Source: a virus (lineage: Duplodnaviria > Caudoviricetes). From it: a stretch of DNA of 44,028 nt. The DNA lies in IMG/VR virus record IMGVR_UViG_3300035190_000600, positions 1 to 44,028 of that record. One strand, given 5' to 3'. The notes beneath the pieces are model-generated. The model ran no database searches and was not told the origin of the DNA. It worked only from the letters and a program-made list of their open reading frames with translations. Positions 2,629-42,259 of the stretch are shown piece by piece. The position numbers and the translations under genes are program-made. Position 1 is the first letter of the stretch; every line of letters starts with the position of its first letter.

Positions 2629-3001
2629 TCCGACGCAGTTGACAATGGCGTGGATGAAGCGGCGGGGCTTCATTGCGCAAATTGTCGAGCGGTGGAATCC
2701 GTTTGCCAAAGTGCGGCAAGACCTGTTTCAGGTCATCGACATCGTCGCTGTAAACGAGCAAGGCGACTTGCTGGGCATTCAAGTAACGACACGCGCCAAC
2801 ATTAGCTCGCGCCGCGCTAAAGTGCGCGAGAGCTTAGGTGCTATGTACTGGGCAACGCACAACCAAGTTGAGGTTCATGGCTGGCAGAAGGTAGGCCCGC
2901 GCTGGACGGTCAAGGTTTGCGAGATGGAATACGACAAGTACAAAGCAATGTGGGTCGAGAAGGAGTTCGAGGGCGACACAAGCAAAAAAGCAGCGCAATG
3001 A
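2579..3001 (+). CDS. PD-(D/E)XK nuclease, Holliday junction resolvase-like
   Basis: RQDLFQVIDIVAV...LGIQVTT motif; about 140 aa; located in the replication module. Confidence 0.65.
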   Translation: MSNATKNKTTRKKTKISPTQLTMAWMKRRGFIAQIVERWNPFAKVRQDLFQVIDIVAVNEQGDLLGIQVTTRANISSRRAKVRESLGAMYWATHNQVEVHGWQKVGPRWTVKVCEMEYDKYKAMWVEKEFEGDTSKKAAQ

Positions 3002-4485
3002 AGTACTTGTCCGTGTGCAGCGGCATCGAAGCCGCAACTGTTGCTTGGCATCACCTGGGGTGGAAACCTGTGGGCTTTGCTGAGATCGAAAAATTTCCGC
3101 AACAAGTCTTGGCGCATCACTATCCCGATGTGCCGAATTTTCAAGATCTGACACAACATGACAAATGGCCTTTGGAACGTGGAGCAGTTGACCTTTTGGT
3201 CGGAGGAACCCCCTGCCAAGCATTCAGCATCGCAGGACTCCGGCGAGGAATGGATGACGAGCGTGGTCAACTCACCCTTGAGTTTGTCCGACTGGCTGCA
3301 CGCCTACGCCCGCGCTGGATCGTCTGGGAAAATGTCCCCGGTGTTCTGTCCAGCGGAGGAGGACGGGACTTTGGTTCCTTCCTCGGCGCGTTGGCTCAAC
3401 TCGGGTATGGGTTCGCCTACCGAGTGCTTGACGCTCAATACTTCGGAGTGGCCCAGCGACGCCGTCGTGTGTTCGTTGTCGGATACCTTGGAGACTGGCG
3501 TTGTGCCGCAGCGGTTCTTTTTGAGCGCGAAAGCCTGCGAGGGGATTCTTCGCCGCGCAGCAAAGCGCAACAAGAAACTTCCTCCAGCGCTCGAAGCGGC
3601 CTTGCGTCAAGTAGCGCAGATGTAGTTGGCGCAATTGATTGCAGGATCAACGCGCAGCGGGCACAAAATGCGGTAGCGGGTCATATGGTTGCAACCAAAT
3701 GCATGAACGCACGGCGGTTGGCTATCGACTCGTATGTGGAGGATGACATTGCATCTACAGTCGCTGCTCGAGACTTCAAGTCTGCTAGCGACCTGCATGT
3801 AACATGGCCGGCTGACGTTGTGCCGTGCATGAACGCGCAATTTGGCGACAAGTACGGGCAGGACAACCAGCACATTGACGACGGCGATGGATACTTTGTT
3901 GGGTTTAACGCACGACAAGATCCTGTGCAGTACGGCAACCAATCTGGCGCAGTTGATACTGACGGACACACGATGGCGGTGGCGCTCGGAACCGACTGCT
4001 ACAACGGAAGCGTGACTGGTGATGTTGCAGCGACAATGGGCACGCCAGGTTCGTCTGTGAACGCTTCGGGGCCAACGGTGATGGTGCAGCAGCCTTCTGT
4101 TACCCACACTCTGCGTGGCCGAGGATTTAATGCAAGCGAAGACGGGACTGGTCGAGGTACGCCGCTCGTGTCGCAGCCAAGTACAGTATTCCAAGACAGC
4201 CAATACGGCGTTGCAGAATACGATTCTGCTGGAACTTTGCGTGCTGGCAGAATTCCAGAACACCAAATGACAATTTCTCCAGCCATGCAGGTGCGTCGTC
4301 TCACGCCGGTAGAGTGCGAGCGCTTACAAGGCTTTCCAGACGGCTACACCGACATTCGGCCTCGTGGCAAAGATACGCCTGACGGCCCGCGCTACAAGGC
4401 GCTTGGCAACAGCATGGCCGTGCCCGTCATGCGCTGGATCGGGGAAAGGGTGAATTTGGTGGATTCACTCAAGCGCAGCCGATAA
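2998..4485 (+). CDS. C5 cytosine DNA methyltransferase with long modular variable region
   Basis: Motif I SVCSGIEA, IV GGTPCQAFS, VI WENVPG, VIII QRRRR, IX RRLTPVECERLQGFP, X ALGNSM; ATG at 2998 overlaps the upstream stop. Confidence 0.95.
   Translation: MKYLSVCSGIEAATVAWHHLGWKPVGFAEIEKFPQQVLAHHYPDVPNFQDLTQHDKWPLERGAVDLLVGGTPCQAFSIAGLRRGMDDERGQLTLEFVRLAARLRPRWIVWENVPGVLSSGGGRDFGSFLGALAQLGYGFAYRVLDAQYFGVAQRRRRVFVVGYLGDWRCAAAVLFERESLRGDSSPRSKAQQETSSSARSGLASSSADVVGAIDCRINAQRAQNAVAGHMVATKCMNARRLAIDSYVEDDIASTVAARDFKSASDLHVTWPADVVPCMNAQFGDKYGQDNQHIDDGDGYFVGFNARQDPVQYGNQSGAVDTDGHTMAVALGTDCYNGSVTGDVAATMGTPGSSVNASGPTVMVQQPSVTHTLRGRGFNASEDGTGRGTPLVSQPSTVFQDSQYGVAEYDSAGTLRAGRIPEHQMTISPAMQVRRLTPVECERLQGFPDGYTDIRPRGKDTPDGPRYKALGNSMAVPVMRWIGERVNLVDSLKRSR
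3158..3625 (+). CDS. Overlapping +1-frame ORF inside the methyltransferase gene, resembling the M.EcoHK31I beta polypeptide
   Basis: 155-aa open frame with SSARWLNSGM...SLSDTLET...FFLSAKACEGILRRAAKRNKKLPPALEAAL, matching my recollection of the EcoHK31I beta-type sequence. Confidence 0.7.
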   Translation: MTNGLWNVEQLTFWSEEPPAKHSASQDSGEEWMTSVVNSPLSLSDWLHAYARAGSSGKMSPVFCPAEEDGTLVPSSARWLNSGMGSPTECLTLNTSEWPSDAVVCSLSDTLETGVVPQRFFLSAKACEGILRRAAKRNKKLPPALEAALRQVAQM

Positions 4486-4537
4486 AAAGGCGATAAGTCG
4501 CCTAGGTGGGCGATCAACAACAACAAAAGGAGTGGAA

Positions 4538-4936
4538 ATGATCTTTCAAGCTGTAGTTCTGCTGTCTCTCGCTGCGGCTCCTGCCCATACCGAGCGGCAG
4601 TTCTTTGATGCCATTCGTCGCGTCGAAACCGGCGGTGTGGCAAACCAAGGCAAGGGCGCAGTTGGCGACAAGGGCGCGAGCATCGGCCCGTATCAAATTC
4701 AGCGTGCGTATTGGGAGGACGCACGCATGAAGGACGGCAGATATGAGGATTGCCTTGCCGACCATGTTTACAGCGAGCGCACGATGCGTGCTTACTTCCA
4801 ACGCTATGCACCCAAAGCTTTAGCTGCTGGCGACTGGGAGACGCTGGCTCGCATCCACAACGGTGGGCCGAAGGGTCACACCAAGAAAGCAACCCAAGCC
4901 TACTGGCTCAAGGTGAAGAAGGAGATGAGCAAGTGA
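4538..4936 (+). CDS. Secreted lysozyme, invertebrate (i-type/destabilase)-like
   Basis: Signal peptide; catalytic-type VETGG; GPYQIxxxYW; ARIHNGGP; terminal YWxKV; aaggag SD. Confidence 0.8.
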   Translation: MIFQAVVLLSLAAAPAHTERQFFDAIRRVETGGVANQGKGAVGDKGASIGPYQIQRAYWEDARMKDGRYEDCLADHVYSERTMRAYFQRYAPKALAAGDWETLARIHNGGPKGHTKKATQAYWLKVKKEMSK

Positions 4937-5333: not shown

Positions 5334-5545
5334 GCAACGACAAAACCAAACGGCGGATCATTAGCCACATCACAATTAACGCCATCAAGGTGACCGTGGA
5401 GTTTCAAAGCAAGCGCGACAAGCTCATGTTTGATCGGTGGGTAGAAAAAGACTATCCCGAACAAATCAAGCGCGGGCTGACAAGTAGAGAAGTGCTTGAG
5501 CTTCTTGCAAATAAATTGGAACTTTTTGACGGTTACGCAACATGA
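5330..5545 (+). CDS. Hypothetical protein
   Basis: Translationally coupled ORF, gaggtg SD. Confidence 0.65.
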   Translation: MSNDKTKRRIISHITINAIKVTVEFQSKRDKLMFDRWVEKDYPEQIKRGLTSREVLELLANKLELFDGYAT

Positions 5546-6141
5546 CTTTATACACGCACAGCGGCTCGCTGCCGCAACACTTGTATGTCTGGGTGCGGTC
5601 GGCCTTCCTGCGCAGCGACATCGCGGATACGGGCGCGTATGAGCCTGTGGTATGGTTCGGCTTGTCTTCCACGCCGTCACGCGCTTGGGGATGCCATGTA
5701 CGCACAGAAGACAACGCCGTGGTGCGCAACATCCCGCCGCACGAGATTGCGTTTAGGCCGTTTACGGACAAGGACGACATCTGGTGCAATCGCAGTTGGG
5801 ACTTGCACGAGGCGCAGTTCTGGGACTGCACCGGCTACCAGTTCTCGCTGCACGAGTACACCTACCTCCAGAACATGGAGTGCGTGTATCACACAGATCC
5901 GTTTGCCAACGACGACCAGCTTTACGGTTGGTACTTGTTTACCGCGATTCCTGTTGGTGACGGTTGGAGTCGCGAACCAGAGCAGCAGAAAGAATATCTT
6001 TTCATGCGCGGCTGCAATGGTCGCCTTGCAATTAGGCCAACGAACTCGGTATTAGTGCTAGACCAAAGCGTCTCAACCAAGCTCGAATCTTGGCCAAAGA
6101 ACATCCGCGCCCAAACGAAAGTTTGGAGCGTAGACCGCTAA
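5542..6141 (+). CDS. Conserved phage hypothetical protein (aromatic-rich, WDC motif)
   Basis: ATGA coupling; 199 aa; last gene of the + arm. Confidence 0.8.
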   Translation: MTLYTHSGSLPQHLYVWVRSAFLRSDIADTGAYEPVVWFGLSSTPSRAWGCHVRTEDNAVVRNIPPHEIAFRPFTDKDDIWCNRSWDLHEAQFWDCTGYQFSLHEYTYLQNMECVYHTDPFANDDQLYGWYLFTAIPVGDGWSREPEQQKEYLFMRGCNGRLAIRPTNSVLVLDQSVSTKLESWPKNIRAQTKVWSVDR

Positions 6142-6709: not shown

Positions 6710-9700
6710 TTAGAAGTTGCGGAGCATGATCACTTCATCAACTGCTGCTTTTCTTGCCTTCTTCAACGCATCCTCAATAATCTTTCGATCTGCTTGAGTC
6801 GGGTTGTCGTAGTTAAGATTAGCGTACAGCAGATTGTCAGCAGCCATCGCGCCAGCATTTCGCGAAGCGGTGGCGTACTCTTCAGGTGTAAGAGTATAGC
6901 TTACGCCATCGCGTTCAGCCTTGCGAGGCAACGGGCGTGGACTAAGCTTGGTTTCTTGATCGCCAAAATCGCCGTTATCGCGCCGTTGATTAAAGCGCAT
7001 AATCAGCAAATCTAAGCGGTTAATGTCCGTGACTTCCTGACTAGTCGGGAAGAATCGCGTCAAACGGGCGGTGTAACTGCGTCCCATCTTTTCGATTGGC
7101 CTGCCCCACAAGTCGTATTTGATCGGCGGGTAGTTGTCTTTAGTCGGGAAAGCAACATACTCCATCGACTCTACCGCCGCCGTCCACGCAGATTTGCCCT
7201 CTTGCTCGTAAACGGTGTTCATGCGCTCATAGGGGTCGGCTGCTGACATCGTTCCTCGGACAAGCGCAGGTGTCATTGGTGTCAAGAAGAAGTTACGCGC
7301 CCACAGAGCAACATTGAGGCGATCCTTATCCTCTAGCATCTTCATTAGATCGCCAAAGGTCTGCAAGAAGGTCTTGTCCTGCAACTGCGCAGTAAAGCTA
7401 TCCCACAGCGTTTGCATGGCTTGCGTACCGCCGTCCGGCGCATTACCAACAGCCTTTTGGAAGGCGCGATATGCGTCTACAATGGTTGCAAGCGAAATTG
7501 CAAACGGCTCAACTCGAGAATAGCTGTAGTACGAGTCGCCAATACGCACCGAGTAAGGCGGCGCAACAGCTTTTTGCCGCAAGTAGTCAAGGTAGTCAAC
7601 TTCGCTGCTGCCGGTGATGACGGGGATATCGTCGTCATCGTCCATGTAGGAAATGACACCCATGATCAAAGACATCGCAACAACTGCGTTTGCGGAGTCT
7701 GTAATCATCTCGCCGCTTTTCACATAATTTTCTTTGATGCGTGAAGGCGCAAGCAAGCGGTACACCAGAACCAATGGGTGCGCAGGTGTTTCTAGACCAG
7801 CTTTAAAGATACCGCCCGGAGTTTTGATGTACGGCAGCAACATACTGCCCAATGGCAAAACGGGGAACAGGTCGTCTGTAAACTGACGCAGGTTCATTAA
7901 GGCGCGCACAATTGCACCTGGCGGCCCTTGGAAAACACCTAGCTTGGCGTTGTCGAGTGCCTCACTCCATACTGGGTTGCTGTAATCAATCAACCCGGCT
8001 TCAATGTGCGCCTCCAACGCTTCGCCGGTCAAACCATCATTGCGGCCTTCGCGATGCAAGATCGCAGAAGCTTCGCCGTGCGCCGCCATCGTTTTAAACA
8101 ACTCGTCAAAGGCAAGTAGTGTATTGAGCGAGGGGAAGCGCAGGATGCGACCAATCAAACCCGGCATTAGCAAGGTATGCTGCTGAATTTCTGCATCCGT
8201 TGAAGCATTTAAATCTGCTTCAAGAATCGGCATCTCCGTTGCGTAGGCCATCATAAAGTTGCGGCCCGCTCGGCCCATCGCCTTGAAATAGGCGGTCATG
8301 TAGGCTTTGAACTCGCCCATCGTTGCCGCATCAGGGTTTTTGGCAACGGTGTTAATTGATGCTTCGGCAAACAACCGCGACACACGCAAGAATTGGTTGG
8401 CTGTGTTGCCAGTCACGTTGGCGATGTGGGTTCCTAAACCCGACAACATCATCGCCATGCGGAACTCAATAAACAGTCGGCCAAACAAAGCCCCTGCGCT
8501 GCGGTCGGTCGGGTCAACTGACGCAAATTCCTTCGCCTCAATAACCTTGCGCGACATTCGATAGAAGTTGACCCATTCCTTGTTTTCAAGGTACGAGTAC
8601 ATCTGCTCCAAAGAGCCACCTGCCCGCTCTAGCCGTTCAATAGCGCGAGTGACAGCACGGGCTTGACGCAACTCAAGTTTTTGAATATCTGCTTTGAGGG
8701 CAGCAACCTTCTGGGGATTTAGGTTTTCTTTGCCTAGTTGTTTTTGCAGCTTGCGTAGCTTGCGGGCAACATCACGCGACGGGCCAAACACATGGGCTTG
8801 GAAGCGTTTGCGTGCAGACACAACATCGTCTTTAACGATGCGCAAGTTTGCTGACGCTAGTTTTCGCGCCTGCAAGTACTCGCGTTGAGCTTGAGTTGCC
8901 TCAACAAACTTTGCTTGCGTGTAGTTGTTAATAACTTTGTCAGCCAAGTCAGCGGCGATGCGGCCATAAGCAATGTGCTTCCAAGGCTCGTTTAGACCGC
9001 CAGTTTCCTGAATCTCTTTTTGCAGGTTGCGATATGTGCCTTCGTAATCAAGCTCTAACTGTTCGTTTGCGACAACGCGGGCTTGGCGGTCAAGCGCAAT
9101 GTCTTCAAACATTGCATCTGGATTTTCGCGCTGATACTCGCGCACAGCACGCAGGTAGGCTCGAGTACCAGGCTCCGCTGTCGGCATGGCAATGCCAATC
9201 GGAGTCTCACCGACCTTCGTACCTTCACCTTCAAGCTCGGCCTTTTTAGCTAAAGCTCTAATTTCTTTGTTTTCGTCTTTGCCAATTTCAGCAAGACGAA
9301 TCTTGTTGCGGCGAGCGCGTTCACGCAGCAACTGCATAGCTGCGCTTTCGACCTTTTGTTTAGAAGTTCTCGACTTAAAGCGTCCGAACACATCTCGAGG
9401 GGCTTCGCCCTCCGTGTAGCTCATCCGCAAGTCATCAGGCACTTCGTTGTATTCGGCTTCGTATGCGCCGTCAGCGTCGATTGCAGCCTCAGGCAACAAG
9501 GGCTTGATAAACGCTTCCGTAATCGTGCCGTCGATGCCATTGCCTAGTACCTCTTTAGCCAAGGTGTACTGGCTCGGAACCTTGTAGGTGTCAGGCAAGC
9601 TCATTAGACGCGCTAGGACGCGAGGCGATGCCTTCAGCACCGTCCCGTCCGGGATAATGATCCGAACGCGACCCTTGTTCGCGGTAAGCGTCGGAGCAAG

Positions 9701-12700
9701 CCCACCTGAGTTGGCGGCAGCAGGAGCGCCTGCGAAGGCACTACCGCCCATAGTGATAATCGGCTTATTAGGGTCAAGTCGGCCAGACGCAATCCATTTG
9801 TCGATGCGCATCTGCTCGTCAGGCCCAACGCCTTCCTTGTCAACCTCCAAGGTCGGCAGCAAATCTTGGATTGCCTCATACCAGTCACGAGGGCTTTTCT
9901 TCGGCGGCAACGGGGGCAACTCGCCTTCGCGCACGGCCTGCAAGATCATTCGCTTGCGGCTTTGCACCGCGCCGTAATCAGCGGCATCAACAACCAACAC
10001 GCGATGCTTGTAGCCGTTTTCTTTCAATGCCGTAAGGATCTTTTGGAACGGCGGGAAATCTACATAGGCAGGCACATTCTCAACCGATACCGCAGGCGGC
10101 AATGCACCAGCAATCAGCTCTGCGACCTTTTCTGCGCTTCGTACTTCTAGTTCCGTTGGCGCACGGTCGGCCTTAGCCGTCGAGAATTCTTTGCAAGACG
10201 GCGATGCATGGAACAAGTCGCAGTCAGCCTGCTTAAGCTCGTCTACGGTCAGTTCTTTAACTTCGCGAGCCTTGTATGAAGTGCCAAAGGCATTGTTGTA
10301 TGCCTCTACTTTGCGTGCATCGTTTTCTGCCGTCAGCGCACTTGTGATCGGCCCAAGTGCTGCCTCAACAGTACCCATGCCGCTAAACGCCGTTGCTACA
10401 CGAGGATCGTTGTAGCTAAACCGAACATCATTAGTTGTGTCTTGGAAACGCTGCGATAAAGGAATCAATTTCCCGTTGTCGTCGTAGGTGACAGGATCGG
10501 CTGATTTGATTTGAGACGAATCAAACGCAACTTGCTCGCCAGGTGCCGAAACTCCGTCATATCCATTTTCTTTTAAAATGCGCGTGATTGTTGACGCTTC
10601 TTTTTCCGTAGTAAAAAACGCATTTAAAAGCATTTGCCGATCTTCATTGTTGCTAGCTAGCATTGCAACTTCATCTCTAAATGCGTCTTGACTAAGCATT
10701 TTAGAGATCGGCACATACGGATTGTTTAACTTTAGATACACGCGCACAATGCGCGGTTTAGCTTCTTCTTTTGTAACAGGATTGATCCCGCCAAATTTGT
10801 TGTATCTAGCAGCCGAGCTTTGAGAATAAATCTTGGCTAGTTTTTCAGACCCAAAATAAAACCCTTTGCCGTATGCACCGGCATCAGTTTTTTCTCCAGC
10901 GTCTGCTTTAAACTCATTAAATTTAAAAGCAGTTCCATGACTTGTTTCAATTGTATAGCCGTTTGCCTGCGCTTCTTTGCGCACCATGCGTTGAGCCGTG
11001 TCCATGTCGCCGCTTTCCACAGCGGCAAGGTACGCAGCGTCAATTTCAGGCGTAGTTTGGTTGTAGCTGAACCGAATGTCGTCAGTTGCTTCGTTAAAAC
11101 GCTCAGACAGCGGGATAACGCGATTTTTTTGGCGAATAATTGCGTCAGCAGATTTAATCTGGGTAGGGTTAAAAACGACTTTTACATCATCTAATGGCCC
11201 ACCATCATATGTATTTTTAATAATTACGCTGTCGTAACCCTGCTCTTTTGCCTTTGCAATAATTTCGTAAAAGGTTTTTTCTCTGTATTTTTGACCTTGC
11301 TGATCGTGGATATACGGGTTTTGCATTTTTAGCAAAACATCGACAACTGCGCTGTCTACAACGCTTTCGTAGGTAATTTGCCCTAAAGTTTCATTAACAA
11401 TAGAACGCGCTTGCTCAACTGCATCTACAATTTCGGTTTCATTAACGAAGTCATCAGCTCTGAACTCTGCGTCATCTAATAATCGTTCGACATATTTAAT
11501 TGTCGAATCCAAATAATCTTCAGGATTAGATTCATCCCATGATTGTGGAGCGAATGCGCTGTTGCCTAATTCTCTAACAAAATCTAACTCTCTTGACGCT
11601 CCTTTTGGAATTAACTTTAAAAGTGGCTGAACAATAGCTTCAGCCGTTTCAGCAATACCAGATGCGTTATCAGCATTAAGTGTTTTTAATCCATAGTTTT
11701 TAGCTGTTTTTTTTGATGCAAAAAAGAACCCAAGTTTTGCGCTAGCAGCTTTTGTGTTTTGCCCCAACAAATTAGGGTCAAATGAATAATTAACAAGTTC
11801 GCCTAAGGCCAACCCATGACTGCCTTTTTCTGTATAACCACTTGCCTTTGCCGCTTCATCTACCATCCGCTGCGCAGTATCTAGGTCACCGCGCTCAACA
11901 GCATCTAGGTACGCAGCGTCAATCTCAGGCGTAATTTTGTTGTTGTAGCTAAACCTCGGCAAGTCGCCTTCTTCGCGTTCAGCCTGCGCCTTGATGCGTT
12001 CCTTCATCAGTCGCTTGGTTTCATCTCGGCGCATTTCCTCCGCAGACCGACGACGAACCAGCGCCTTAAAGCGCGGGTCGGTCATATCGACCGTAATAGG
12101 CTCTCCGGCCCACTTGATGCGCGTCCACCAATTGCGAACGCCTTGACGCTCTAGAATGGCAACGCGAGCAGCCTCCGACCGCGTAATCGGAATAATCATC
12201 ACGCGCTGTTCTGTACCTGAGCCAGTAGCTGCGACAACCTTTGACACACCCTTTTCGCCAAAGATTACGAGGTCACCTACCTCTAGCTGCCCAGGCACCG
12301 TGCGGCCCCGGCTCACCGTGGGCAACTCTGTTTCCCTCCGAGCTTGCCGTTCTGCGGCCTCTTGCTGCTCCTCTTCGGCTTTGCGGTCAGCAGCGGCTTT
12401 TGCGGCAGCGGCTTCTTGCTGCTGCGCAGCTAGCCTGCCTGCGGCGGCTTTGGCAGCAGCCTCCTTGGCCTCAGCTTCTTGCCGTTGCTTTTGAGCAAGC
12501 ACTTCAGCGGCCTTCTTTTGTGCCTCTTGTGCAGCACGCTCGCGTTCAGCAGCAGCAGCTCGCTCACGGCCAAGTCGATCTTGCGTAATACGAATGGCTT
12601 CAAGAGCGGTCTCTAGCACCTGAGCATCCGTAGCCTCATTGCCTAAAAACTCTCGCGCTGCTTCCAACGCTGCATCTTCGTTGGCTCCAGCCTTGTACAC

Positions 12701-15700
12701 GGCGTTTAGCAACGCCTTAGCTTGCCCAGTCGGGTTGTCGCTCTTAACTTGCTTAAAGCGGCGTTGGTATTGTTCCTCTTGAGCCTTGCGCTTTGCTTCT
12801 GCTTTCTCCGCTTCTTTAGCTGCTTTTGTTTTGGCAGCTTCCTGTCTAGCCTTTAGCGCATCTGCGGCTCTTTGCTTTTCTTTGGTGGCAACATCTGCCT
12901 TCTTTTGCGCTTCTTCTTCCTTGCGCTTTTTGTCTGCTGTTTCCTTCGCAACTTCTTTTTCAAGTTGCTTGTACGCAACCGCCCAAATTGCGTCAGTTAA
13001 CTCTTTACGCTCGACTTCCGTAGCTTCAGCAGGCACAAGCGGTGCAATTGCGGCATCAAGCTCAATTGCAGACTTTGCGTTAGCAACCGCTTCAACTAGC
13101 GGCCAGTCTGCGCTGTCTTTTTTAATACGAGCAATGCGGGTGCGAGCGGTATCGACAACTTTGACACGGGCTTTTTCTTTTTGCGCAGCTTCTTTCTCAG
13201 CGCGAGATTTTTGATCCGTTTCTAGTTTAACTCGAGCAGCTTCAGCAGCAGCAGCGCGTTGAGCCTCCGCTTCCTTGCGTGTTTTAATTTCACCTAAAGT
13301 GCGACCTAGGAAGGCTTGTGCTTGCCGTTCCTGCCCAGACATCTGCATCTTAGCCGCAGATTCAATTGCAGTCAGGCCGCGCATAAGGGTCTGCGCAATG
13401 AACAGTCGCTCATTAACGCTTAGGCTTTCCTGCATAGCTTTGTCAGCTAAGGCAGGCAAGCGAGCTAGGGCTGCGCGTTCTTTGTCGCTAATCGATGTGT
13501 AGTCAAAGCCAACGCGGCGCAGTTGTACGCGCACCCAATCAACTAGTCGCTTTAAAAAACCTGCGTCGGCTTGAGCCAACTCGCTAACCAACTTTGGATC
13601 GGCTTCAAGCGCATCCATAGTCGCGCTAAACCAATCAGAAATTAGACTACCAGTTTCATCTGTAATTGCGTTTGCGTTGTTTTTAATCCATTTAGCCAAT
13701 GCCGCAGGATCGTCTTTAATTGCAGCCGTGCGGCTTGCAATAAAACGGCGGCGTGCAGCATTCCACAATTCGCCTTTTGCGGCTTTAATTGTAGCCATAA
13801 TGCTTTCCCATTCGGCTTTGTTGTTTTTAAACAAGCCGTGGAAGGTTTCATGCCGAGCAACGCGCTTAAGAATTGCTTCGTTGCTTAGTCGAGCGTTAAG
13901 ATAAATGCGGTTTGTTGTGCCATCGTATGCTCCTTCAAGGTTGACATCTTTGCCGTAGTCAACAAATGTGACCTCATAGCCAAGGTCGTTGAGTCGTCGT
14001 TCGGCGTTTTGCTGTTCAACGTTACGCGGCAAGACGGCGCGAACATCCTTAGGATTGATGGTCGCCAAGTCATCCATGTTCTTAGCTTTTGTCAGCTTGC
14101 GAACATGGTCATCCAAATCTCGCTGCGCCGTTGCATCTAGCACTCGCGTTTGCCCAGCAGCAACCGCTGCATCAAACGCTTCTAACTCGCCTGCTAGCGT
14201 CGCTGCGGCACGAGCCTCGCCATACGGGCCAGCCATGCGCTCTTTCTCGCGCACACCTTCTGTGGCTTCAATAGACTTTGCCTGCTCTAACAACAGTTCC
14301 TGCTGCTTGCGCAAACGCTCGACTTCGGCGCGTTTTGCAACAATTTCAGGCGTTGCAACTACAGGCACAGTAGTTGTCGTAGGTTCTGTCGCAGTTGACT
14401 CTACCGGCGCAGCCTCTGCTTCCGGTGCTGCTGTTTCTGTAGTTGGTACAACGGCTTCAGCCGATGCTGTTTCGCCTGCAATCTCTTCCAAGACAGGCGG
14501 CTTTGCATCGGCAGGCAGTTCTACTTCGCCTGGAATTGCAGGTTTAGCAGTATCGACCGTCTCAGTCGCTGTTGTCTCTGCGGCAGCAGCGGCTTCCAAG
14601 CTTTGTAGCTCTGCCTCGTTTTGCGCCAAAAGCTCTGCAACGCCTTTGACCTTTTCGTCAAACGCACGAACTCGCGCACCGGCTTCAGCATCACGAGCAG
14701 CGGCAAGTGCGGCAGCCTCAGCTTCCTCTTCGGCCTTAAGGCGACGGTCGCCTAGTTCAGCGTCAATCTGCTGGTTTTCTTTGTTAGACGCATAAGCAGA
14801 GATTGTCGCACCCGGCCCAGCACCAAGCGCACCTTGGTACAGCACTTCGCCAAAATCATATTCCTTGCGGTAGCCAATGGTCTTTTCCGCAACCTGTTGC
14901 AACTGAGCCGAGCCACCTTCTTGGATTGCTTCCTCAAAGCCTTCCCACGCAGCTAGCTCTGCAATCTCACGAGCCGTCATGCGACGCAAGGCTTCGCCGC
15001 CCATCTTCATAGAAGCTGTAGCAAGACGCTTGGCCGCAGAACCGATACCCATCGGAATACCTTCAAGGCTTCCAATAAATAGACCGGCCTTGTACGCATC
15101 TTCGGCTTGCTCTGGGGTTGCGCCCATAGCCAACGCCTCGTCGTACATCTGCGCACCCATGCTGAAAGAACCAACAACAGCGGTAGTGCCAACGCTACCA
15201 GCCAAACCGCCTGCAATCACTCCAGCAGGGCCAGCCGTTGCCCCGCCAACTGCCGCACCTGCTGTCATGCCGAGTTGGCCCAAACCAAAGAAAGCACCAG
15301 CAGAGCCAAACGCGCCAGAGACATCGCCTGAAATTGAGTTAGCTAGGCCAGGTTCGCCTGGCAACGTTTCACGCACCCATTCTTTGGCGGCTCGCATCAC
15401 GTCATCGACTTGCGAGTCTTTGCCGTAGTCGTCAGCCATTGCCATGCCTTGAATGGCACTTAACGGCACATCTGCAGCACTACGAAGAAAGCTCTGTCCC
15501 ATGTTGGACAGATAATCCATCGTGCTAAACTCAATCTCGCCGCCAGTTTGCAGGAAATCAAAGTTCGGCAAGTATACGGGAGTGCCGGGTGTTTCTGGCT
15601 CCTGTGTTGGCGCAGCAACAGCAGCTTGGGCTGAAGATGCGCCCGATTTAATTACTAAGTTTCCAGCAGCAAGATCGTCAAACAAGCTTTGATACTCGCC

Positions 15701-15787
15701 AAGAATTGGCTGAGTGCCTGTTAAATCTGACGGCAACACGCCTTGACGACGCAGTTCTTCCTCTTCGGTCTCGCTGTAGTAAACCAT
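6710..15787 (-). CDS. Giant ejection/polyvalent protein (3025 aa): Gly/Ala membrane region, HExxH peptidase, coiled coil, two ART-like domains, C5 methyltransferase, helical C-terminal region
   Basis: Third ejection-gene position; HETFH (13838-13852); two HG..GF[FY]F..NPY..GYD..QIKSAD domains; FSGMG, ASPSC, VENV, QSRKR and GNGI methyltransferase motifs. Confidence 0.9.
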   Translation of the reverse strand: MVYYSETEEEELRRQGVLPSDLTGTQPILGEYQSLFDDLAAGNLVIKSGASSAQAAVAAPTQEPETPGTPVYLPNFDFLQTGGEIEFSTMDYLSNMGQSFLRSAADVPLSAIQGMAMADDYGKDSQVDDVMRAAKEWVRETLPGEPGLANSISGDVSGAFGSAGAFFGLGQLGMTAGAAVGGATAGPAGVIAGGLAGSVGTTAVVGSFSMGAQMYDEALAMGATPEQAEDAYKAGLFIGSLEGIPMGIGSAAKRLATASMKMGGEALRRMTAREIAELAAWEGFEEAIQEGGSAQLQQVAEKTIGYRKEYDFGEVLYQGALGAGPGATISAYASNKENQQIDAELGDRRLKAEEEAEAAALAAARDAEAGARVRAFDEKVKGVAELLAQNEAELQSLEAAAAAETTATETVDTAKPAIPGEVELPADAKPPVLEEIAGETASAEAVVPTTETAAPEAEAAPVESTATEPTTTTVPVVATPEIVAKRAEVERLRKQQELLLEQAKSIEATEGVREKERMAGPYGEARAAATLAGELEAFDAAVAAGQTRVLDATAQRDLDDHVRKLTKAKNMDDLATINPKDVRAVLPRNVEQQNAERRLNDLGYEVTFVDYGKDVNLEGAYDGTTNRIYLNARLSNEAILKRVARHETFHGLFKNNKAEWESIMATIKAAKGELWNAARRRFIASRTAAIKDDPAALAKWIKNNANAITDETGSLISDWFSATMDALEADPKLVSELAQADAGFLKRLVDWVRVQLRRVGFDYTSISDKERAALARLPALADKAMQESLSVNERLFIAQTLMRGLTAIESAAKMQMSGQERQAQAFLGRTLGEIKTRKEAEAQRAAAAEAARVKLETDQKSRAEKEAAQKEKARVKVVDTARTRIARIKKDSADWPLVEAVANAKSAIELDAAIAPLVPAEATEVERKELTDAIWAVAYKQLEKEVAKETADKKRKEEEAQKKADVATKEKQRAADALKARQEAAKTKAAKEAEKAEAKRKAQEEQYQRRFKQVKSDNPTGQAKALLNAVYKAGANEDAALEAAREFLGNEATDAQVLETALEAIRITQDRLGRERAAAAERERAAQEAQKKAAEVLAQKQRQEAEAKEAAAKAAAGRLAAQQQEAAAAKAAADRKAEEEQQEAAERQARRETELPTVSRGRTVPGQLEVGDLVIFGEKGVSKVVAATGSGTEQRVMIIPITRSEAARVAILERQGVRNWWTRIKWAGEPITVDMTDPRFKALVRRRSAEEMRRDETKRLMKERIKAQAEREEGDLPRFSYNNKITPEIDAAYLDAVERGDLDTAQRMVDEAAKASGYTEKGSHGLALGELVNYSFDPNLLGQNTKAASAKLGFFFASKKTAKNYGLKTLNADNASGIAETAEAIVQPLLKLIPKGASRELDFVRELGNSAFAPQSWDESNPEDYLDSTIKYVERLLDDAEFRADDFVNETEIVDAVEQARSIVNETLGQITYESVVDSAVVDVLLKMQNPYIHDQQGQKYREKTFYEIIAKAKEQGYDSVIIKNTYDGGPLDDVKVVFNPTQIKSADAIIRQKNRVIPLSERFNEATDDIRFSYNQTTPEIDAAYLAAVESGDMDTAQRMVRKEAQANGYTIETSHGTAFKFNEFKADAGEKTDAGAYGKGFYFGSEKLAKIYSQSSAARYNKFGGINPVTKEEAKPRIVRVYLKLNNPYVPISKMLSQDAFRDEVAMLASNNEDRQMLLNAFFTTEKEASTITRILKENGYDGVSAPGEQVAFDSSQIKSADPVTYDDNGKLIPLSQRFQDTTNDVRFSYNDPRVATAFSGMGTVEAALGPITSALTAENDARKVEAYNNAFGTSYKAREVKELTVDELKQADCDLFHASPSCKEFSTAKADRAPTELEVRSAEKVAELIAGALPPAVSVENVPAYVDFPPFQKILTALKENGYKHRVLVVDAADYGAVQSRKRMILQAVREGELPPLPPKKSPRDWYEAIQDLLPTLEVDKEGVGPDEQMRIDKWIASGRLDPNKPIITMGGSAFAGAPAAANSGGLAPTLTANKGRVRIIIPDGTVLKASPRVLARLMSLPDTYKVPSQYTLAKEVLGNGIDGTITEAFIKPLLPEAAIDADGAYEAEYNEVPDDLRMSYTEGEAPRDVFGRFKSRTSKQKVESAAMQLLRERARRNKIRLAEIGKDENKEIRALAKKAELEGEGTKVGETPIGIAMPTAEPGTRAYLRAVREYQRENPDAMFEDIALDRQARVVANEQLELDYEGTYRNLQKEIQETGGLNEPWKHIAYGRIAADLADKVINNYTQAKFVEATQAQREYLQARKLASANLRIVKDDVVSARKRFQAHVFGPSRDVARKLRKLQKQLGKENLNPQKVAALKADIQKLELRQARAVTRAIERLERAGGSLEQMYSYLENKEWVNFYRMSRKVIEAKEFASVDPTDRSAGALFGRLFIEFRMAMMLSGLGTHIANVTGNTANQFLRVSRLFAEASINTVAKNPDAATMGEFKAYMTAYFKAMGRAGRNFMMAYATEMPILEADLNASTDAEIQQHTLLMPGLIGRILRFPSLNTLLAFDELFKTMAAHGEASAILHREGRNDGLTGEALEAHIEAGLIDYSNPVWSEALDNAKLGVFQGPPGAIVRALMNLRQFTDDLFPVLPLGSMLLPYIKTPGGIFKAGLETPAHPLVLVYRLLAPSRIKENYVKSGEMITDSANAVVAMSLIMGVISYMDDDDDIPVITGSSEVDYLDYLRQKAVAPPYSVRIGDSYYSYSRVEPFAISLATIVDAYRAFQKAVGNAPDGGTQAMQTLWDSFTAQLQDKTFLQTFGDLMKMLEDKDRLNVALWARNFFLTPMTPALVRGTMSAADPYERMNTVYEQEGKSAWTAAVESMEYVAFPTKDNYPPIKYDLWGRPIEKMGRSYTARLTRFFPTSQEVTDINRLDLLIMRFNQRRDNGDFGDQETKLSPRPLPRKAERDGVSYTLTPEEYATASRNAGAMAADNLLYANLNYDNPTQADRKIIEDALKKARKAAVDEVIMLRNF

Positions 15788-15792
15788 GTGCG

Positions 15793-17646
15793 TTATTCTT
15801 GTTTAGCGAACTGAGGGTTCTTAATCCACTTGCCGTTAGGAAGTCCAAGCACATTGTCGGTTTGCAAAAACCGCACATCATAGCCGCTTTCAACTAGCAG
15901 CAAGTACATAGCCGCACTAGCCGCTGCTTTTTCTTTGCCAGCAAATGCTTTGCCTGTTTTTGGATCTAACAGTTCTTTGTCAACCAATAGCTTTTTGATT
16001 TTGGTTTGAAGCTCTGGGTTAGCTTTAGGAACTGCAAAACCAGCATCATTTTCAAGGAAGTTTTCCTTAGGAATGTCTTGTGCTGACTTAATTGCGCTTG
16101 ATTCCGTTTTGTCAGTCTTCAACACTACTGTCGGAGCTTGCTTGGCCGCAGGTTGCGCAGGAGTTGCGGGTTTGGCAGCAGACGGCGTTGCCGCAGGTTG
16201 CGCAGTTGCTTGCCCACTACGACTAGCTTCAAACGCTTGCTGTTGCTGCACAATAGCCGCTTCGTCGTCTGCACGATATTGCTGTGCAAGGTTTTTGATA
16301 AAATCTTGTGGAGTAATTGTCGGAGGTGTCAACGTTTTTTGACCGTTCTCGTCAACAACTTCTTGCCGACCAAGTGCGCGTGCCTTACTTGCGTCATCTA
16401 AATTTTCAAATGTTTTTGAAGCCATCTGCACATATTCTGACGGAAGCTTTAGCTTGGGCGCAGCGGCCCTCAATTCTAGCGCAGCACGAGCTTCGATAGC
16501 GTCCGTCTTTGCTTTGTTATAGGTATCTACTTCAATTTGTCTGTTTTTAAACGCTTCTTCAAAGCCTACGGCAGGCGCAACAAACTCAGTCCCATCTGTT
16601 AGTTTTCGCGCAACCAACCCCTTTGCTGCATTGTCCATTGCAGTATCAAGTTCCTTGCCTTCAACTCCCGCCTTAAGCAAGTTTTGCGCATACACGGTTG
16701 CTTGCGTCACATTGGGGTTGTTGGTCTGACGACCCATTTCACGGGTTTGCGCAAGACGCAACGCAGCCGATTGATAGTTGTCAGCCTTAATGTTTTGCTG
16801 CGCCACTCCGTCAAGGATGGATTGCTCCATTTTGCGCAAATCGGCAAGCGCGGCTCGAGGATCTTGCGATGCCTCAAGAAGTTGCTGAATCTTAGCAGCA
16901 ATTTGCGGGTCGTTGACTGGTTGACCAAAGTTGTCTTCAGGCGTGTATGCGCCAGCAGCCATGCGATCTGCAACGCTTGACGCAAAAGCCATCCGGCCTG
17001 AGGAATCCAAGTCCTGCAACGCACGGCCTCGCGCCCACTCTCTAAACTTAGTTTGCTGTTCGCCAGACAAGCCTTGCGCAAGCTTTTCAGCAGCAGTTAA
17101 ACGATCTTCATACTGTTGCGCTAAAGCCTGCTCTTGGGGCGACAATCGCGGCCCCAAAATCAACTGCGCTTCAGAAAGCTTTGAAAAAGTTTGAGCTACA
17201 GTAGGGATCTTGCCAAACGGCGTATTTACTGATGCTCCCGTTGCTTTGGCTGCGCCCGACAAAGTTGAGTATGTTTTAGCTTCTCCAGCATACCGACCTA
17301 ATGCGCCTTGTTGCGCTTGAGTAACCTGTGTGCCCATACCCTCAATTGCGGTTTGTTCAGCGGCTACCTTGCTTCCTAAATCGCGCTGACCCAATTCATA
17401 GTTATGTTCATCAATTGCACGCTTTTCCTGCCCTGCTGCTCGAGCGTCTGCGTTTTGTGCAAGAGTAAGTCGATCCTGTTCTACTTGTTTCCTTCCCTCT
17501 TCCAATGCCATGCGCAATTGCATTTCTTGCTCTGCAAGATCTACTTTGCGCTTTTCAAAACCTAGCTGCATACCTTGGCTAAGGCCAGCAGCAATACCAG
17601 CCATTGCATTGTTGATGCCGCTGTTAGGACGAATGATTAGTGCCAT
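15793..17646 (-). CDS. Internal virion/ejection protein
   Basis: Ala/Gln-rich helical 617 aa; sits between the pilot protein and the giant protein. Confidence 0.65.
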   Translation of the reverse strand: MALIIRPNSGINNAMAGIAAGLSQGMQLGFEKRKVDLAEQEMQLRMALEEGRKQVEQDRLTLAQNADARAAGQEKRAIDEHNYELGQRDLGSKVAAEQTAIEGMGTQVTQAQQGALGRYAGEAKTYSTLSGAAKATGASVNTPFGKIPTVAQTFSKLSEAQLILGPRLSPQEQALAQQYEDRLTAAEKLAQGLSGEQQTKFREWARGRALQDLDSSGRMAFASSVADRMAAGAYTPEDNFGQPVNDPQIAAKIQQLLEASQDPRAALADLRKMEQSILDGVAQQNIKADNYQSAALRLAQTREMGRQTNNPNVTQATVYAQNLLKAGVEGKELDTAMDNAAKGLVARKLTDGTEFVAPAVGFEEAFKNRQIEVDTYNKAKTDAIEARAALELRAAAPKLKLPSEYVQMASKTFENLDDASKARALGRQEVVDENGQKTLTPPTITPQDFIKNLAQQYRADDEAAIVQQQQAFEASRSGQATAQPAATPSAAKPATPAQPAAKQAPTVVLKTDKTESSAIKSAQDIPKENFLENDAGFAVPKANPELQTKIKKLLVDKELLDPKTGKAFAGKEKAAASAAMYLLLVESGYDVRFLQTDNVLGLPNGKWIKNPQFAKQE

Positions 17647-17671
17647 AGCGTTGTGTTCCTAAACTTATTTA

Positions 17672-18319
17672 TTAGCCAGCCTTAGCTTTGTCTTTTCCGT
17701 ATGTCATTCCATACCCCAACAGCGCACCGCCGATTTGACCTAGGCCAGCCGTCCATGCGTTCGGATCTTGGAACTGAATGTTCGCAGTTGCACCAGCTTG
17801 TGCGCCAAGCAACGCCGTGTTCGCGCCTGCGTAGTTCTGGTAGAAGCCCGACATCGCGCCATACGCGCCCGCTTCTGCTGCTGCCTGCGCTTGTGCTAGT
17901 TGCCCTTTCATACCAGCAACCGACTCGTCAATACCCATCAGCGTGCGGCTAAGGTCGCTGCTAATGCCGCGTTGTGCGTTATCAAACGCAGTCGTGTTGT
18001 ACAAACCGCGCTGGGTCATGGACTGCTGCATTGCGCTGCCCATTTGCTTGGACTGATCGTATGCGCCTTGCTTGGCCGACTTGCCGTACATATCGGCAAA
18101 CTTATTGGCCTTTTCAAAACCCTTTTGCAGCGTGGGCAACACCATTGCTTGCTGCTGACGAGCCGCGCCGTAAAGCCAATCTTGATCCTTTTTGGCTTGG
18201 CCGTACAGCTTCATCATGTTCTTCATTTGCTTTTTTGCAGGGTCGTTGCTGCTGCCAAGCAAACCACCCAAAATGCTGCCACCAGCACTAATTAAACCTG
18301 CTCCAATAATCGGATCCAT
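17672..18319 (-). CDS. DNA pilot/ejection protein (P22 gp7-like)
   Basis: MDPIIGAGLISAGGSILGGLLG N-terminus, Gln/Ala-rich core, Gly-rich hydrophobic C-terminus. Confidence 0.7.
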   Translation of the reverse strand: MDPIIGAGLISAGGSILGGLLGSSNDPAKKQMKNMMKLYGQAKKDQDWLYGAARQQQAMVLPTLQKGFEKANKFADMYGKSAKQGAYDQSKQMGSAMQQSMTQRGLYNTTAFDNAQRGISSDLSRTLMGIDESVAGMKGQLAQAQAAAEAGAYGAMSGFYQNYAGANTALLGAQAGATANIQFQDPNAWTAGLGQIGGALLGYGMTYGKDKAKAG

Positions 18320-18702
18320 TAGTATCGCTCCTCGTCGTTTAGGATTTCGTTGCCTTCCACTACCGCCGTTCCGTGGACAAACGAGCAGCCGTAAAGCTGT
18401 GCGTCCCCTCGAACGATGGCTGATTCGTACACGCGGCTCTCGCCGTCGATTCTAGCGTTTCCTTCGATGACTGCTAGATCAAACACTTGCGCTTCGTGAC
18501 AGATGTATGCGTTGCCGCAAACATGGCTGTTGCCGTAAACCCAAGCTCGGTCAACGACCCATGCGTTGCCGTACACAAGCGCGTCAGGGCCAATGTAGAC
18601 GGTGTCGTCGTAGACCACGGTGTCAGCAATCCAGCCCCCGCCGTTGGCGTGCTGGTGGGCCGGTACAGGGCCGTTGCCGTCACCGAAGTCATAGGTGGTC
18701 AT
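18319..18702 (-). CDS. Hexapeptide-repeat (left-handed beta-helix) protein
   Basis: Repeats VYGNAW/VYGNSH/VCGNAY/IEGNAR/VRGDAQ after HQHANGGGWIA. Confidence 0.85.
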   Translation of the reverse strand: MTTYDFGDGNGPVPAHQHANGGGWIADTVVYDDTVYIGPDALVYGNAWVVDRAWVYGNSHVCGNAYICHEAQVFDLAVIEGNARIDGESRVYESAIVRGDAQLYGCSFVHGTAVVEGNEILNDEERY

Positions 18703-39023: not shown

Positions 39024-39839
39024 TCATACTTGCACCACCATAGCGTTGCCCTTGCGCATTGCACCCTTAGCACGTAGGCCTACGATGCAACCCACAGGGT
39101 CCACCGTTCTATCGTCGTGCAAGTCGCCGTCTACCACCGGCAATCCAAGGTAGGTTGTGGGCAATGGCTGTCCGGCCTTGGTACTAAACACCACAGCCAC
39201 CGTATAGCCGCGCTGGCAAGCGTCTAGGATTTCCCATTCCTTAGTGTTCTCATGGCGCGACAGCACATGAACGCATGCGAAACGCGCGGCGTGTTCTTTC
39301 TCCACAGCGTCCAAAGTAAACCTACGATGCTGTTCCCATTTCTTAGTGTACTCATAGAAACGCAAATCGGCATCGCCGGACAATGCACGGCGCAAGTCTA
39401 GTCGCGTGCTGTCCCAAGGTAGATCCGATGTGCCGTTTAAACGCACTAGTACTTTGGGTGTTCGACTGTTCGACCGCTTCCACGATCGGACAATATCGCA
39501 AGCTTCTGCGATTAGCGCATCTTGGAAAGCTTGCCGGTCTTCCAAGTACCATTTGGAGCGGCGTAGCATTGCCCTTTGAGCGTTTCCGTTGGGCATTGCC
39601 AAATGGCCACTAGTGTCCCCTAAACACCCCGCTAGGCAAGCTTCCGTAGCTTTCGGACAGAATACGCCCGGCTTCAAGTACAGCACTAGGCTAATATCGG
39701 CTAGACCAAGCTTCACGGATTTCTGGGTCTTAGTAGATACCGACCACAGGCACGATTTGCCCATATCGGCCGGGTTTACATTGTCGACCATTGCCAGCGC
39801 ATTGCCGCGCATTACTTCCAAGCTTGCCATTGTTGCCAC
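39024..39839 (-). CDS. GP88-family protein (Cys-cluster, radical-SAM-like); start may be ATG 39830
   Basis: CPKATEACLAGCL, RLNGTSD, FYEYTK, VAVVF, VVDGDxHDxR, IVGLRAKG. Confidence 0.8.
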   Translation of the reverse strand: MATMASLEVMRGNALAMVDNVNPADMGKSCLWSVSTKTQKSVKLGLADISLVLYLKPGVFCPKATEACLAGCLGDTSGHLAMPNGNAQRAMLRRSKWYLEDRQAFQDALIAEACDIVRSWKRSNSRTPKVLVRLNGTSDLPWDSTRLDLRRALSGDADLRFYEYTKKWEQHRRFTLDAVEKEHAARFACVHVLSRHENTKEWEILDACQRGYTVAVVFSTKAGQPLPTTYLGLPVVDGDLHDDRTVDPVGCIVGLRAKGAMRKGNAMVVQV

Positions 39840-42143: not shown

Positions 42144-42259
42144 AAAACATGGGCGCGAATCGCCGTGCCGGCGCAATGGAGGCGGCGTTCGATGACCTCT
42201 ACAACCAAGTACTAGCTGAATCAAACCAGAATTGGACGCGCAGAAAAAACAAACCATGA
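42140..42259 (+). CDS. Possible 39-aa peptide (MKNMGANRRAGAMEAAFDDLY...)
   Basis: Fills the gap with overlapping start/stop at both ends. Confidence 0.4.
   Translation: MKNMGANRRAGAMEAAFDDLYNQVLAESNQNWTRRKNKP

Follow-up and report, generated by a model that had tools for sequence, protein, structure and literature searches.

The window, the whole 44,028-nt stretch of DNA that was analysed, is a complete phage record of 44 kb with terminal repeats. Its terminase, SU10-like portal and adaptor, and major head protein genes lie on the minus strand, together with one giant ORF of 3,025 amino acids. The features discussed here are:

6710–15787, −: giant polyvalent protein, 3,025 aa, the closing gene of the virion module
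6710–9415, −: its conserved C-terminal domain, 901 aa, common to the whole family
9416–9427, −: seam tag 4, RMSY, aa 2121–2124, from sequence
9428–10423, −: C5 cytosine methyltransferase cassette, 332 aa, uncapped (Pfam DNA_methylase, E 8e-22)
10412–10423, −: seam tag 3, RFSY, aa 1789–1792, from sequence
10424–11074, −: cassette ART2, 217 aa, GC 0.44, with N-cap, ART-PolyVal core and C-cap, from profile and fold
11063–11074, −: seam tag 2, RFSY, aa 1572–1575, in a linker of the model with pLDDT <50
11075–11956, −: cassette ART1, 294 aa, GC 0.40, with N-cap, ART-PolyVal core and C-cap; other cassettes take its place in relatives
11945–11956, −: seam tag 1, RFSY, aa 1278–1281, where homology to the relatives P0006, P0011 and P0012 stops
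11957–13400, −: likely coiled-coil stalk, Ala/Glu/Lys-rich, and a short globular part up to seam 1
13508–14050, −: zincin-like domain, aa about 580–760, with HETFH at aa 646–650 (nt 13838–13852)
15793–18319, −: two upstream genes (617 and 215 aa), likely smaller ejection proteins by position
42232–43095, +: PD-(D/E)XK exonuclease (E 4e-23 and 3e-16)
about 43085–43951, +: possible single-strand annealing protein, a lead from Rad52/RecT/Sak look-alikes scoring 0.76–0.80

Of the ejection (internal virion) proteins, the giant protein is likely the largest. Two genes annotated ‘internal virion protein D’ align with its C-terminal part by tblastn (E 2e-12 and 7e-5), which appears ejection-protein-like, with no Pfam family at or above cut-off in the C-terminal domain; the stalk is likely a coiled coil, judging from composition. 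The internal virion protein D matches and a fold match to the pre-ejectosome of cyanophage A4 point to a protein that is likely packaged in the virion and injected. The two upstream genes had no Pfam or PHROG match. A viral-contig scan recovered no relatives with the C-terminal domain alone as query and six with an alignment as query, and a scan of genome contigs returned one distant locus and no host. The protein has the character of a polyvalent protein, in that two ART-PolyVal domains, a DNA_methylase and an HExxH domain occur within one chain, the gene is carried among the virion genes of a portal-terminase phage, and the domain architecture differs among relatives.

Both ART cassettes score above the Pfam cut-off for ART-PolyVal, and by our own assignment their catalytic residues would be H1324, F1355 and D1519 (H-F-D) in ART1 and H1617, Y1644 and D1744 (H-Y-D) in ART2. 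In fold, the ART2 model resembles tankyrase and MbcT, its best structural match being cyanophage A4 gp27 (PDB 9K3A; Foldseek E 3.7e-5, Z 8.2); solved structures searched by sequence with the ART profile gave no significant match. The methyltransferase retains motifs I (FSGMG) and VI (ENV), with its catalytic Cys (C1865) in SPSC, not PC. In the zincin-like model, a three-stranded sheet (strands 45–50, 59–62 and 67–71) is followed by the helix that bears HETFH (76–95). Fold matches for this domain, to selecase (best Foldseek E 0.24) and abylysin, are weak, and the peptidase profile, run against solved structures, brought up nothing below E 0.001 except a designed repeat protein, with weak minigluzincin matches besides. 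The third zinc ligand is probably E711, with D718 as the alternative: close family members retain E711 (in an EExxA-like form in P0006), but MAFFT sets the Glu of the wider family on D718. An HExxH or HExxxH domain occurs in 30 of 32 complete giant ORFs, and the H and E of HExxH are invariant in all 30 aligned domains. Searching with the peptidase domain returned five representatives and no cultured phage.

A preliminary description of this DNA had placed four R-[FM]-S-Y motifs at the boundaries of the cargo domains. All four were recovered (RFSY at aa 1278, 1572 and 1789, RMSY at aa 2121), compared to 0.016 expected from composition, and they do fall between domains, with ART-PolyVal matches at aa 1609–1764 and inside 1278–1571 and DNA_methylase at 1801–2093. 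Both tags in the ART2 model lie in stretches with pLDDT <50, outside the fold. RMSR at aa 2410 and matching MFSY/MYSY in the C-terminal domain were set aside as lying off any variable seam. The DNA at the four tags is similar, as had been proposed, with plus-strand 12-mers at 11944, 11062, 10411 and 9415; a 12-mer pattern fitted after the fact, with one mismatch allowed, had four matches against a shuffle mean of 0.54 (at least four in 1 of 100 shuffles). The tags are not mutually independent: one C-cap is common to tags 2 and 3, which close it (130 nt at 72%), and one N-cap is common to tags 1 and 2, which open it (57 nt at 72%). At seam 4 the reading DDLRMSYT was correct, but the R and Y are not invariant: relatives spell this seam LFSA, MFSV, LFSL and VFSA, leaving a conserved core of x-[FYWM]-S.

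Metagenomes contain five cassette layouts on backbones that are 96–100% identical, and the variation always consists of whole tag-to-tag units, in frame (contig-run stretches without cover were left out of this evidence):

ART1–ART2: the window phage
ART1 alone: runs X19 and X4, joint 10408/11060, 651 nt skipped
X–ART2: P0002, a 12.9-kb X6 contig, and L076 (backbone identity 99.9%)
ART′–X: L003 and L005
ART′ alone: L004

ART2 is missing, in frame, from contigs of two other studies, the variant being joined inside nine identical letters of the tag; the X4 joint is the weaker, with 21 letters on its short side versus 245 for X19. Faulty assembly was weighed as the source of the short variants and dismissed, because the exact overlaps at the joints (nine letters for X19/X4, four for L004) are too short to produce a mis-join at usual assembler word lengths. 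Cassette X, for which the Atlas yields no named family and Pfam Phage_L5_gp82 stays below cut-off, is 96.05% identical in DNA over 836 nt between L003 and L014, a distant phage with a C-terminal domain 41% identical to that of the window. Payloads turn over within one lake phage population and cross between distant phages.

These natural variants bear out the proposed swapping of cassettes at seams. That domain content changes precisely at RFSY holds for the units exchanged, which run from tag to tag, but not for the crossovers, the majority of which lie in the caps beside the tag (offsets −35 to −32, about −42 to −10, +21 to +30, +49 and about +107), with only some within the tag codons (+6 to +14, +5 to +17 and +1). 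As crossovers map either to the tag itself or to the ~50–110-nt caps shared beside it, swapping is ordinary homeologous recombination and not the use of a fixed 12-bp site. Nor does the system behave like an integron or shufflon, as codons vary at chance level outside the lineage and crossovers span −42 to +107. The exonuclease and annealing protein (42232–43951, +) are candidates for the recombination machinery.

In a set of 51 giant proteins from phages, 44 of 216 end clusters have the limit of homology at [RK][FYW]S (3.0 expected), and with ART C-cap sites left out 11 of 177 do (1.9 expected), with 26 of 243 for start clusters (4.7 expected). The protein sets used for the boundary and spelling tests were all selected by ART-cassette similarity. 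Ser comes next in 68 of 122 sites chosen by upstream context only. The core [RK][FYW]S is similar in very distant phages, and each protein has its own spelling of the tag (RFSY, RYSL, RYAL, RFQL, RFKL or RFSK): the residue after the Ser position agrees in 25 of 60 within-protein pairs versus 209 of 2,213 between-protein pairs (0 of 500 permutations), with no such effect at +5 or +8. Among cultured phages, gp57 of Bacillus phage Dartukuta has DIRFS twice together with HExxH domains.

Overall, 202 of 467 same-residue pairs use one and the same codon, where codon usage predicts 174, and the tag Ser is encoded by AGY (18) and TCN (38), both of which are found within one protein. Within the window lineage, AGC TAC recurs in every one of the four tags and the tag codons resemble one another more than chance predicts (16/21 versus 8.1), so that DNA copying also helps make the spelling uniform there. 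Outside it, in a sister lineage as well as other phages, codon identity is at chance level (5/15 versus 5.2 and 4/14 versus 4.2, with the 16 spelling sets of the codon test chosen by eye) and the residues are kept, so that across phages the tag is conserved as protein, not DNA. A purely DNA-level role, in which the tag is a microhomology joint or recombination site and its translation incidental, would account for the AGC TAC codons of the lineage and for the joint of the ART2-less variant within nine identical letters, but it is largely refuted by the codons that vary elsewhere under constant residues and by several crossovers 30–110 nt away in the caps, and is considered highly improbable. 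The proposal that the motifs are either cleavage sites or microhomology joints is partly supported, but the two are not mutually exclusive given cap crossovers beside a tag conserved as protein: a protein-level signal appears to fix the place of the seam, and recombination to exploit the homology around it.

The tag could also be a functionless remnant, the C-cap end of a duplicated ART module carried along with each insertion. Tags 2 and 3 do end homologous caps and the majority of the ART cassettes recovered end in D-I-R-[FY]-S, but the tag also bounds unrelated cassettes that have no cap (methyltransferase, GP88-like, a 155-aa insert and helicase-side seams), sits outside the folded domain and changes spelling with the host protein, observations that largely refute the idea and leave it with very little probability. 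In L074 and L075, related methyltransferases end in a tag-like stretch but start without a tag, and P0025 has an HExxH domain and no clear tag.

A tag kept as amino acids and spelled per protein fits a cognate protease, and the chances that this is the HExxH domain of the same chain seem about even. Of the possible reasons for the signal, cleavage by that domain is the most likely. The reading preferred here, to which a probability of roughly 0.52 is given, is that the tags are both the seams of cassettes gained, lost and reordered in a likely ejected polyvalent protein and cut sites for its own HExxH peptidase. When the HExxH domain was modelled in complex with zinc and a tag-2 peptide of 32 residues, the scores were 0.00 and 0.01 against a mark of 0.32; the alignment used was out of register close to the third ligand, and the scores speak neither for nor against cutting.

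Cutting by another protease, from a separate phage gene or the host, would suit the similarity of the core among very distant phages and the seams that persist in two of the 32 complete giant proteins (L034, with S[FY]SI-type seams, and L038, with N[NF]AASL three times), which keep their own style of seam and have no HExxH domain detectable in the ORF or locus. This is rather unlikely, as the spelling tracks the individual protein and no protease family was matched among the window genes scanned (some small ORFs lay outside the scan).

Protease sites typically look like short aromatic-small motifs in exposed linkers, and the per-seam motif of 4–6 residues, in an exposed linker with an intact HExxH nearby, has this look. 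Both that resemblance and the invariance of the HExxH residues weigh against a tag that serves as a protein-level docking or handling signal, whereby the seams would bind a scaffold (perhaps a non-catalytic HExxH) or a chaperone for packaging, unfolding and ejection, and the chain would stay whole. Amino-acid conservation, linker position and own-protein spelling are explained equally well by docking, the L034 and L038 proteins are without HExxH, A4 gp27 combines an ART-like fold in an assembled pre-ejectosome (Z 8.2) with the absence of HExxH, and the N4 virion RNA polymerase has been modelled as an uncut beads-on-a-string chain (PMC13434306). Docking is unlikely on balance but deserves to be taken seriously. 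The points counted against self-cleavage are the uncut N4 polymerase, which has HExxH though no tag in its linkers either, the seams of L034 and L038, P0025, L074 and L075, the weak peptidase fold match, the unfixed third ligand and the share of DNA copying in making the spelling uniform.

Under self-cleavage, the N-terminal part, stalk and C-terminal domain would form an ejection scaffold, between the parts of which two ADP-ribosyltransferases and one DNA methyltransferase would travel as cargo. The cargo would be swapped by homeologous recombination, possibly via the exonuclease and annealing protein of the phage, and selection would hold each new seam in the spelling read by the resident peptidase. 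Separate enzymes, freed by cuts made in the head or once inside the cell, would then modify host proteins and methylate incoming DNA; we infer the ‘anti-defence’ and ‘after injection’ roles of the cassettes. The bond cut would likely be the one just before the aromatic residue, since zincins often accept a bulky P1′ residue. More tentatively, and with the odds somewhat against it, many tailed phages may inject a self-processing polyprotein in which the resident peptidase co-evolves with its own 4–6-residue cut code, the N- and C-caps are a universal frame that passes unrelated payloads between distant phages, and incoming cassettes adopt the code of the recipient and are freed as effectors in the host.

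The question of whether, where and by what polyvalent proteins are cut is as old as their description. A tag conserved as protein and spelled per protein provides exact candidate cut sites, and its spellings (RFSY to RFSK, as above) are a natural specificity series for peptidase-swap tests. Tags also allow thousands of unannotated giant phage proteins to be split into payload units, such as cassette X. If the tag is a cut site for the zinc-protease-like domain of the chain, it pinpoints how multi-weapon proteins release their payloads.

The closest known relatives are the polyvalent proteins (Iyer et al. 2017, PMC5512222), which likewise are described as large virion-module proteins with zincin-like HExxH, ART-PolyVal and DNA methyltransferase domains, usually of the N6 adenine type and not C5 as in the window. 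Polyvalent proteins and the self-cleavage idea are thus already published, autoproteolytic release and cassette-like recombination being raised there as possibilities. The available text of that paper, supplementary alignments aside, yielded no seam motif, cut site or crossover map, whereas the present analysis documents a seam signal, its per-protein spelling, the caps that cassettes have in common and five natural layouts. No description of the tag was found in the literature searched (subscription papers were outside its scope); it may be visible in the alignments of PMC5512222, since the Pfam PBECR5 model begins on a tag.

Coliphage N4 virion RNA polymerase gp50 (PMC13434306), another giant among ejection proteins, likewise has an HExxH domain and carries an enzyme between its scaffold domains, but it has one fixed cargo and two linkers without a tag, and is reported as full length, packaged and purified whole despite the HExxH domain (PMC5512222, PMC13434306). 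Cyanophage A4 gp27 (PDB 9K3A, PMC12002296) and T7-type internal virion protein D are likewise largest ejection proteins, but A4 gp27 lacks HExxH and a clear repeated seam tag. DarB, DdrB and DarA of phage P1, likened here by description and not by sequence comparison, are head-packaged multi-domain antirestriction proteins with methyltransferase or HExxH domains, and processing is reported in their operon; their domains differ, and no cut site for DarA was obtained from the literature.

In the polymorphic toxins Rhs, CDI and MuF, a peptidase acting in cis often frees the payload by cutting at a short motif. Like the cassettes described here, these variable payloads are exchanged, in the account given in PMC5512222, via recombination in conserved flanks. 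In polymorphic toxins the part exchanged is a single C-terminal tip, frequently accompanied by an immunity gene and silent cassettes, whereas in the window the C-terminal domain is conserved, the next genes are on the opposite strand, and the variation is internal, with several cassettes stacked in frame within one ORF.

The record is complete (44,028 nt, with direct terminal repeats), and at least half of the words of the region were present in 20 runs from 20 studies, all of them lake or freshwater metagenomes and three of them flagged as potential sources. A minus-strand module encodes the terminase, an SU10-like portal and adaptor, and the major head protein, and ends in a 3025-aa ORF that contains a long Ala/Glu/Lys-rich stalk, an HExxH motif (HETFH, aa 646), two ART-PolyVal domains (ART1 and ART2), a C5 methyltransferase, and a 901-aa C-terminal domain. 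Two genes carrying the annotation 'internal virion protein D' matched this last domain (E = 2e-12 and 7e-5). By the definition of Iyer et al. (PMC5512222, available text), the giant protein counts as polyvalent, and it is likely the largest ejection protein of the phage. Features of the window include:

2917–4485, plus strand: stand-alone second C5 DNA methyltransferase gene (Pfam E = 9e-54), separate from the giant-protein cassette
4532–4936, plus strand: gene of the destabilase family, resembling i-type lysozymes (Pfam E = 1e-11); likely the endolysin
5542–6141, plus strand: match to PHROG 3704, annotated ferredoxin (E = 4e-17)
6710–15787, minus strand: 3025-aa giant protein
18319–18702, minus strand: hexapeptide-repeat-like 127-aa protein, flanked by a tail-fibre-like gene on one side and the likely ejection genes on the other
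35573–37129, minus strand: alpha/beta-hydrolase BD-FAE (E = 2e-12) amid virion genes; may be an esterase acting on the capsule or cell surface
39024–39839, minus strand: stand-alone GP88-family gene

The four tags of the preliminary description (RFSY at aa 1278, 1572 and 1789; RMSY at aa 2121) and their four DNA 12-mers were re-located exactly. The count of four tags, against 0.016 expected, is one of partly dependent sites, as the ART cassettes have a common stretch after tags 1 and 2 (N-cap) and another before tags 2 and 3 (C-cap). A scan with ART2 returned 49 viral loci, of which 46 were retained (two duplicates and one short ORF removed); adding the window protein and four relatives gave a boundary set of 51 proteins, biased to ART carriers. 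Of 216 clusters of BLAST homology ends, 44 lay within −3 to +6 of [RK][FYW]S (3.0 expected); of 239 clusters of starts, 29 lay within −6 to +12 (6.2 expected). With ART C-cap sites excluded, the values were 11 of 177 ends (1.9 expected) and 26 of 243 starts (4.7 expected; two sites double-counted). The seam tag is a real and general feature.

The majority of homology boundaries fell off the strict tag, partly because spellings differ among proteins, including RYAL (locus L022), RFQL (L047), RFSK (L041 and L053), RFKL (L055), RFQP (L054), RFSV (L065), and QFAL (related protein P0013). Spelling was compared in 48 proteins (three close relatives removed; ART-carrier bias) at sites picked by upstream context alone, and Ser was the next residue at 68 of 122 sites. 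The residue after Ser was identical in 25 of 60 pairs within proteins versus 209 of 2213 between proteins (0 of 500 permutations), and the second residue in 16 of 60 versus 150 of 2213; positions +5 and +8 had no within-protein agreement effect in this set.

For codons (16 proteins, spelling sets chosen by eye), same-residue pairs used the same codon in 202 of 467 cases (174 expected), and tag Ser codons were AGY (18) or TCN (38), both types often within one protein. Codon identity was at chance in the sister lineage (5/15 and 4/14; 5.2 and 4.2 expected) and reached 16/21 in the window's own lineage (8.1 expected; all AGC TAC), so that the DNA likeness described earlier among tag sites is real but local, limited to that lineage. 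With residues kept across mixed codons, selection on the tag works at the peptide level. A joint in the DNA only, with which the local likeness would agree, is very improbable, and so is a relic. An AlphaFold2 model of ART2 with its flanks (mean pLDDT 83) placed both tags outside the fold, in stretches with pLDDT <50, and its top structural match was cyanophage A4 gp27 in the pre-ejectosome (structure in PMC12002296, available text), followed by tankyrase-type ARTs.

The C-terminal domain as query found 23 proteins, including P0002–P0005, which have a backbone in common with the window and a different interval from tag 1 to tag 3; domain content of homologues does change at the tags, the check that had been proposed. 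At the DNA level, five layouts precede the methyltransferase (ART', another ART cassette; X, an unnamed non-ART cassette):

ART1-ART2: the window
ART1 alone: in-frame skip of 651 nt (10408 to 11060), in one of four runs (245 letters on the short side) and one of four runs in a second set (21 letters)
X-ART2: P0002; a 12.9-kb contig in metagenome run X6; L076 (99.9% identity over the first 3881 nt)
ART'-X: L003 and L005
ART' alone: L004

ART2 was also found as a separate contig where the 21-letter joint occurs, and the backbones of the ART'-X and ART'-alone loci had 96.7% and 98–99% identity. The sister lineage (P0007–P0010, L007, L013 and L014; C-terminal domain ~41–43% identity) varied similarly between LFSA, RFSV, and MFSV seams, and P0006, P0011 and P0012 carried different cargo bounded by RWSL, RYSL, LFSL or RFSV, VFSI, AFSV, MFSV, VFSA seams. 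Capped cassettes were AT-richer (GC 0.40–0.44 versus 0.52–0.56 in the backbone and methyltransferase), and their caps enclose domains unrelated to one another, namely ART cores, cassette X, and, in L013/P0008, a further non-ART domain. The GP88 family, stand-alone in the window, is a tag-bounded cassette in the giant proteins P0011 and P0012, which suggests that cassettes are drawn from free genes.

Cassette X (285 aa; L003, 7913–8767; L014, 7883–8740; also in L076) has ART-type caps and a weak match to Phage_L5_gp82. Between L003 and L014 it was 96.05% identical over 836 nt, from 21–24 nt past the start of one tag up to the opening codon of the following one, with only short hits in the remainder of both genes, which marks a recent horizontal transfer of a single unit; distant phages exchange this cassette at 96% DNA identity. 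Crossovers fell at the following offsets (nt from the first base of the tag):

ART2 loss: +6 to +14
Uncapped 465-nt insert, L007 versus L013: ~+5 to +17
Cassette X transfer: +1 and +21 to +30
L004: −35 to −32
X-ART2 type: +49 and ~−42 to −10
ART1 versus ART': ~+107

Given these scattered offsets, exchange takes place by recombination in imperfect homology (caps plus tag). Cassette swapping at the tags, as had been proposed, is borne out by natural variants, but its crossovers spread over caps plus tag without a fixed site. An exonuclease gene adjoins the gene for a possible annealing protein in the window genome, the latter identity being a lead only.

The tags are candidate self-cleavage sites for the protein's own HExxH domain, to which we assign a probability of about 0.5. 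Such a domain was present in 30 of 32 complete ORFs (two of the 32 identical), its H and E were invariant across 30 aligned domains, and E711 is probably the third zinc ligand; in the model (mean pLDDT 76) the HExxH helix comes after three strands, with weak structural matches to minigluzincins. Autoproteolysis was proposed by Iyer et al., whose available text also lists HExxH proteins that stay whole (PMC5512222). Counting against self-cleavage, N4 vRNAP is full length despite an HExxH domain (PMC13434306, available text), although its linkers had no tag. Further, P0025 has the domain without a clear tag, the L074 and L075 methyltransferases lack a tag at their start, and L034 and L038 retain own-style seams where the HExxH search was negative. 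These seams would also fit a docking signal that works without cutting, a possible though less probable reading, or cutting by another protease, which is unlikely. The giant ORF of L038 (989–15442; 4818 aa) has its own spelling, N[NF]AASL, three times and no detectable HExxH domain, providing a natural control for self-cleavage; cleavage at the tag site is now precisely testable.

Because its families act in ADP-ribosyltransfer to host proteins and in protective methylation, the cargo would counter host defence. If a cut precedes the aromatic residue, each of the three cassettes freed at tags 1–3 would begin with Phe, and the C-terminal domain would begin with Met; in other lineages Phe is also at the last seam. 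An N-terminal Phe is an N-degron in bacteria, and such a start could make released cargo short-lived.

Polyvalent proteins, their mosaicism, and suggestions of autoproteolysis and cassette recombination are known (PMC5512222), as are a similar virion-located protein, phi24B gp47 (bioRxiv 10.64898/2026.04.10.717836), and P1 processing with the DarA site unmapped (PMC9024508), each from the available text. The available portions of PMC9503650 and PMC7824862 held nothing further on seams. In the literature covered, the seam tag, per-protein spelling, shared caps, and mapped swaps were not found; alignments in the PMC5512222 FTP material and preprint supplements, outside this scope, may show the tag. 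Compared with the polyvalent proteins in the available text of Iyer et al. (PMC5512222), mosaicism is common to both, while the seam tag, its spelling, the caps, and the mapped swaps are additions here.
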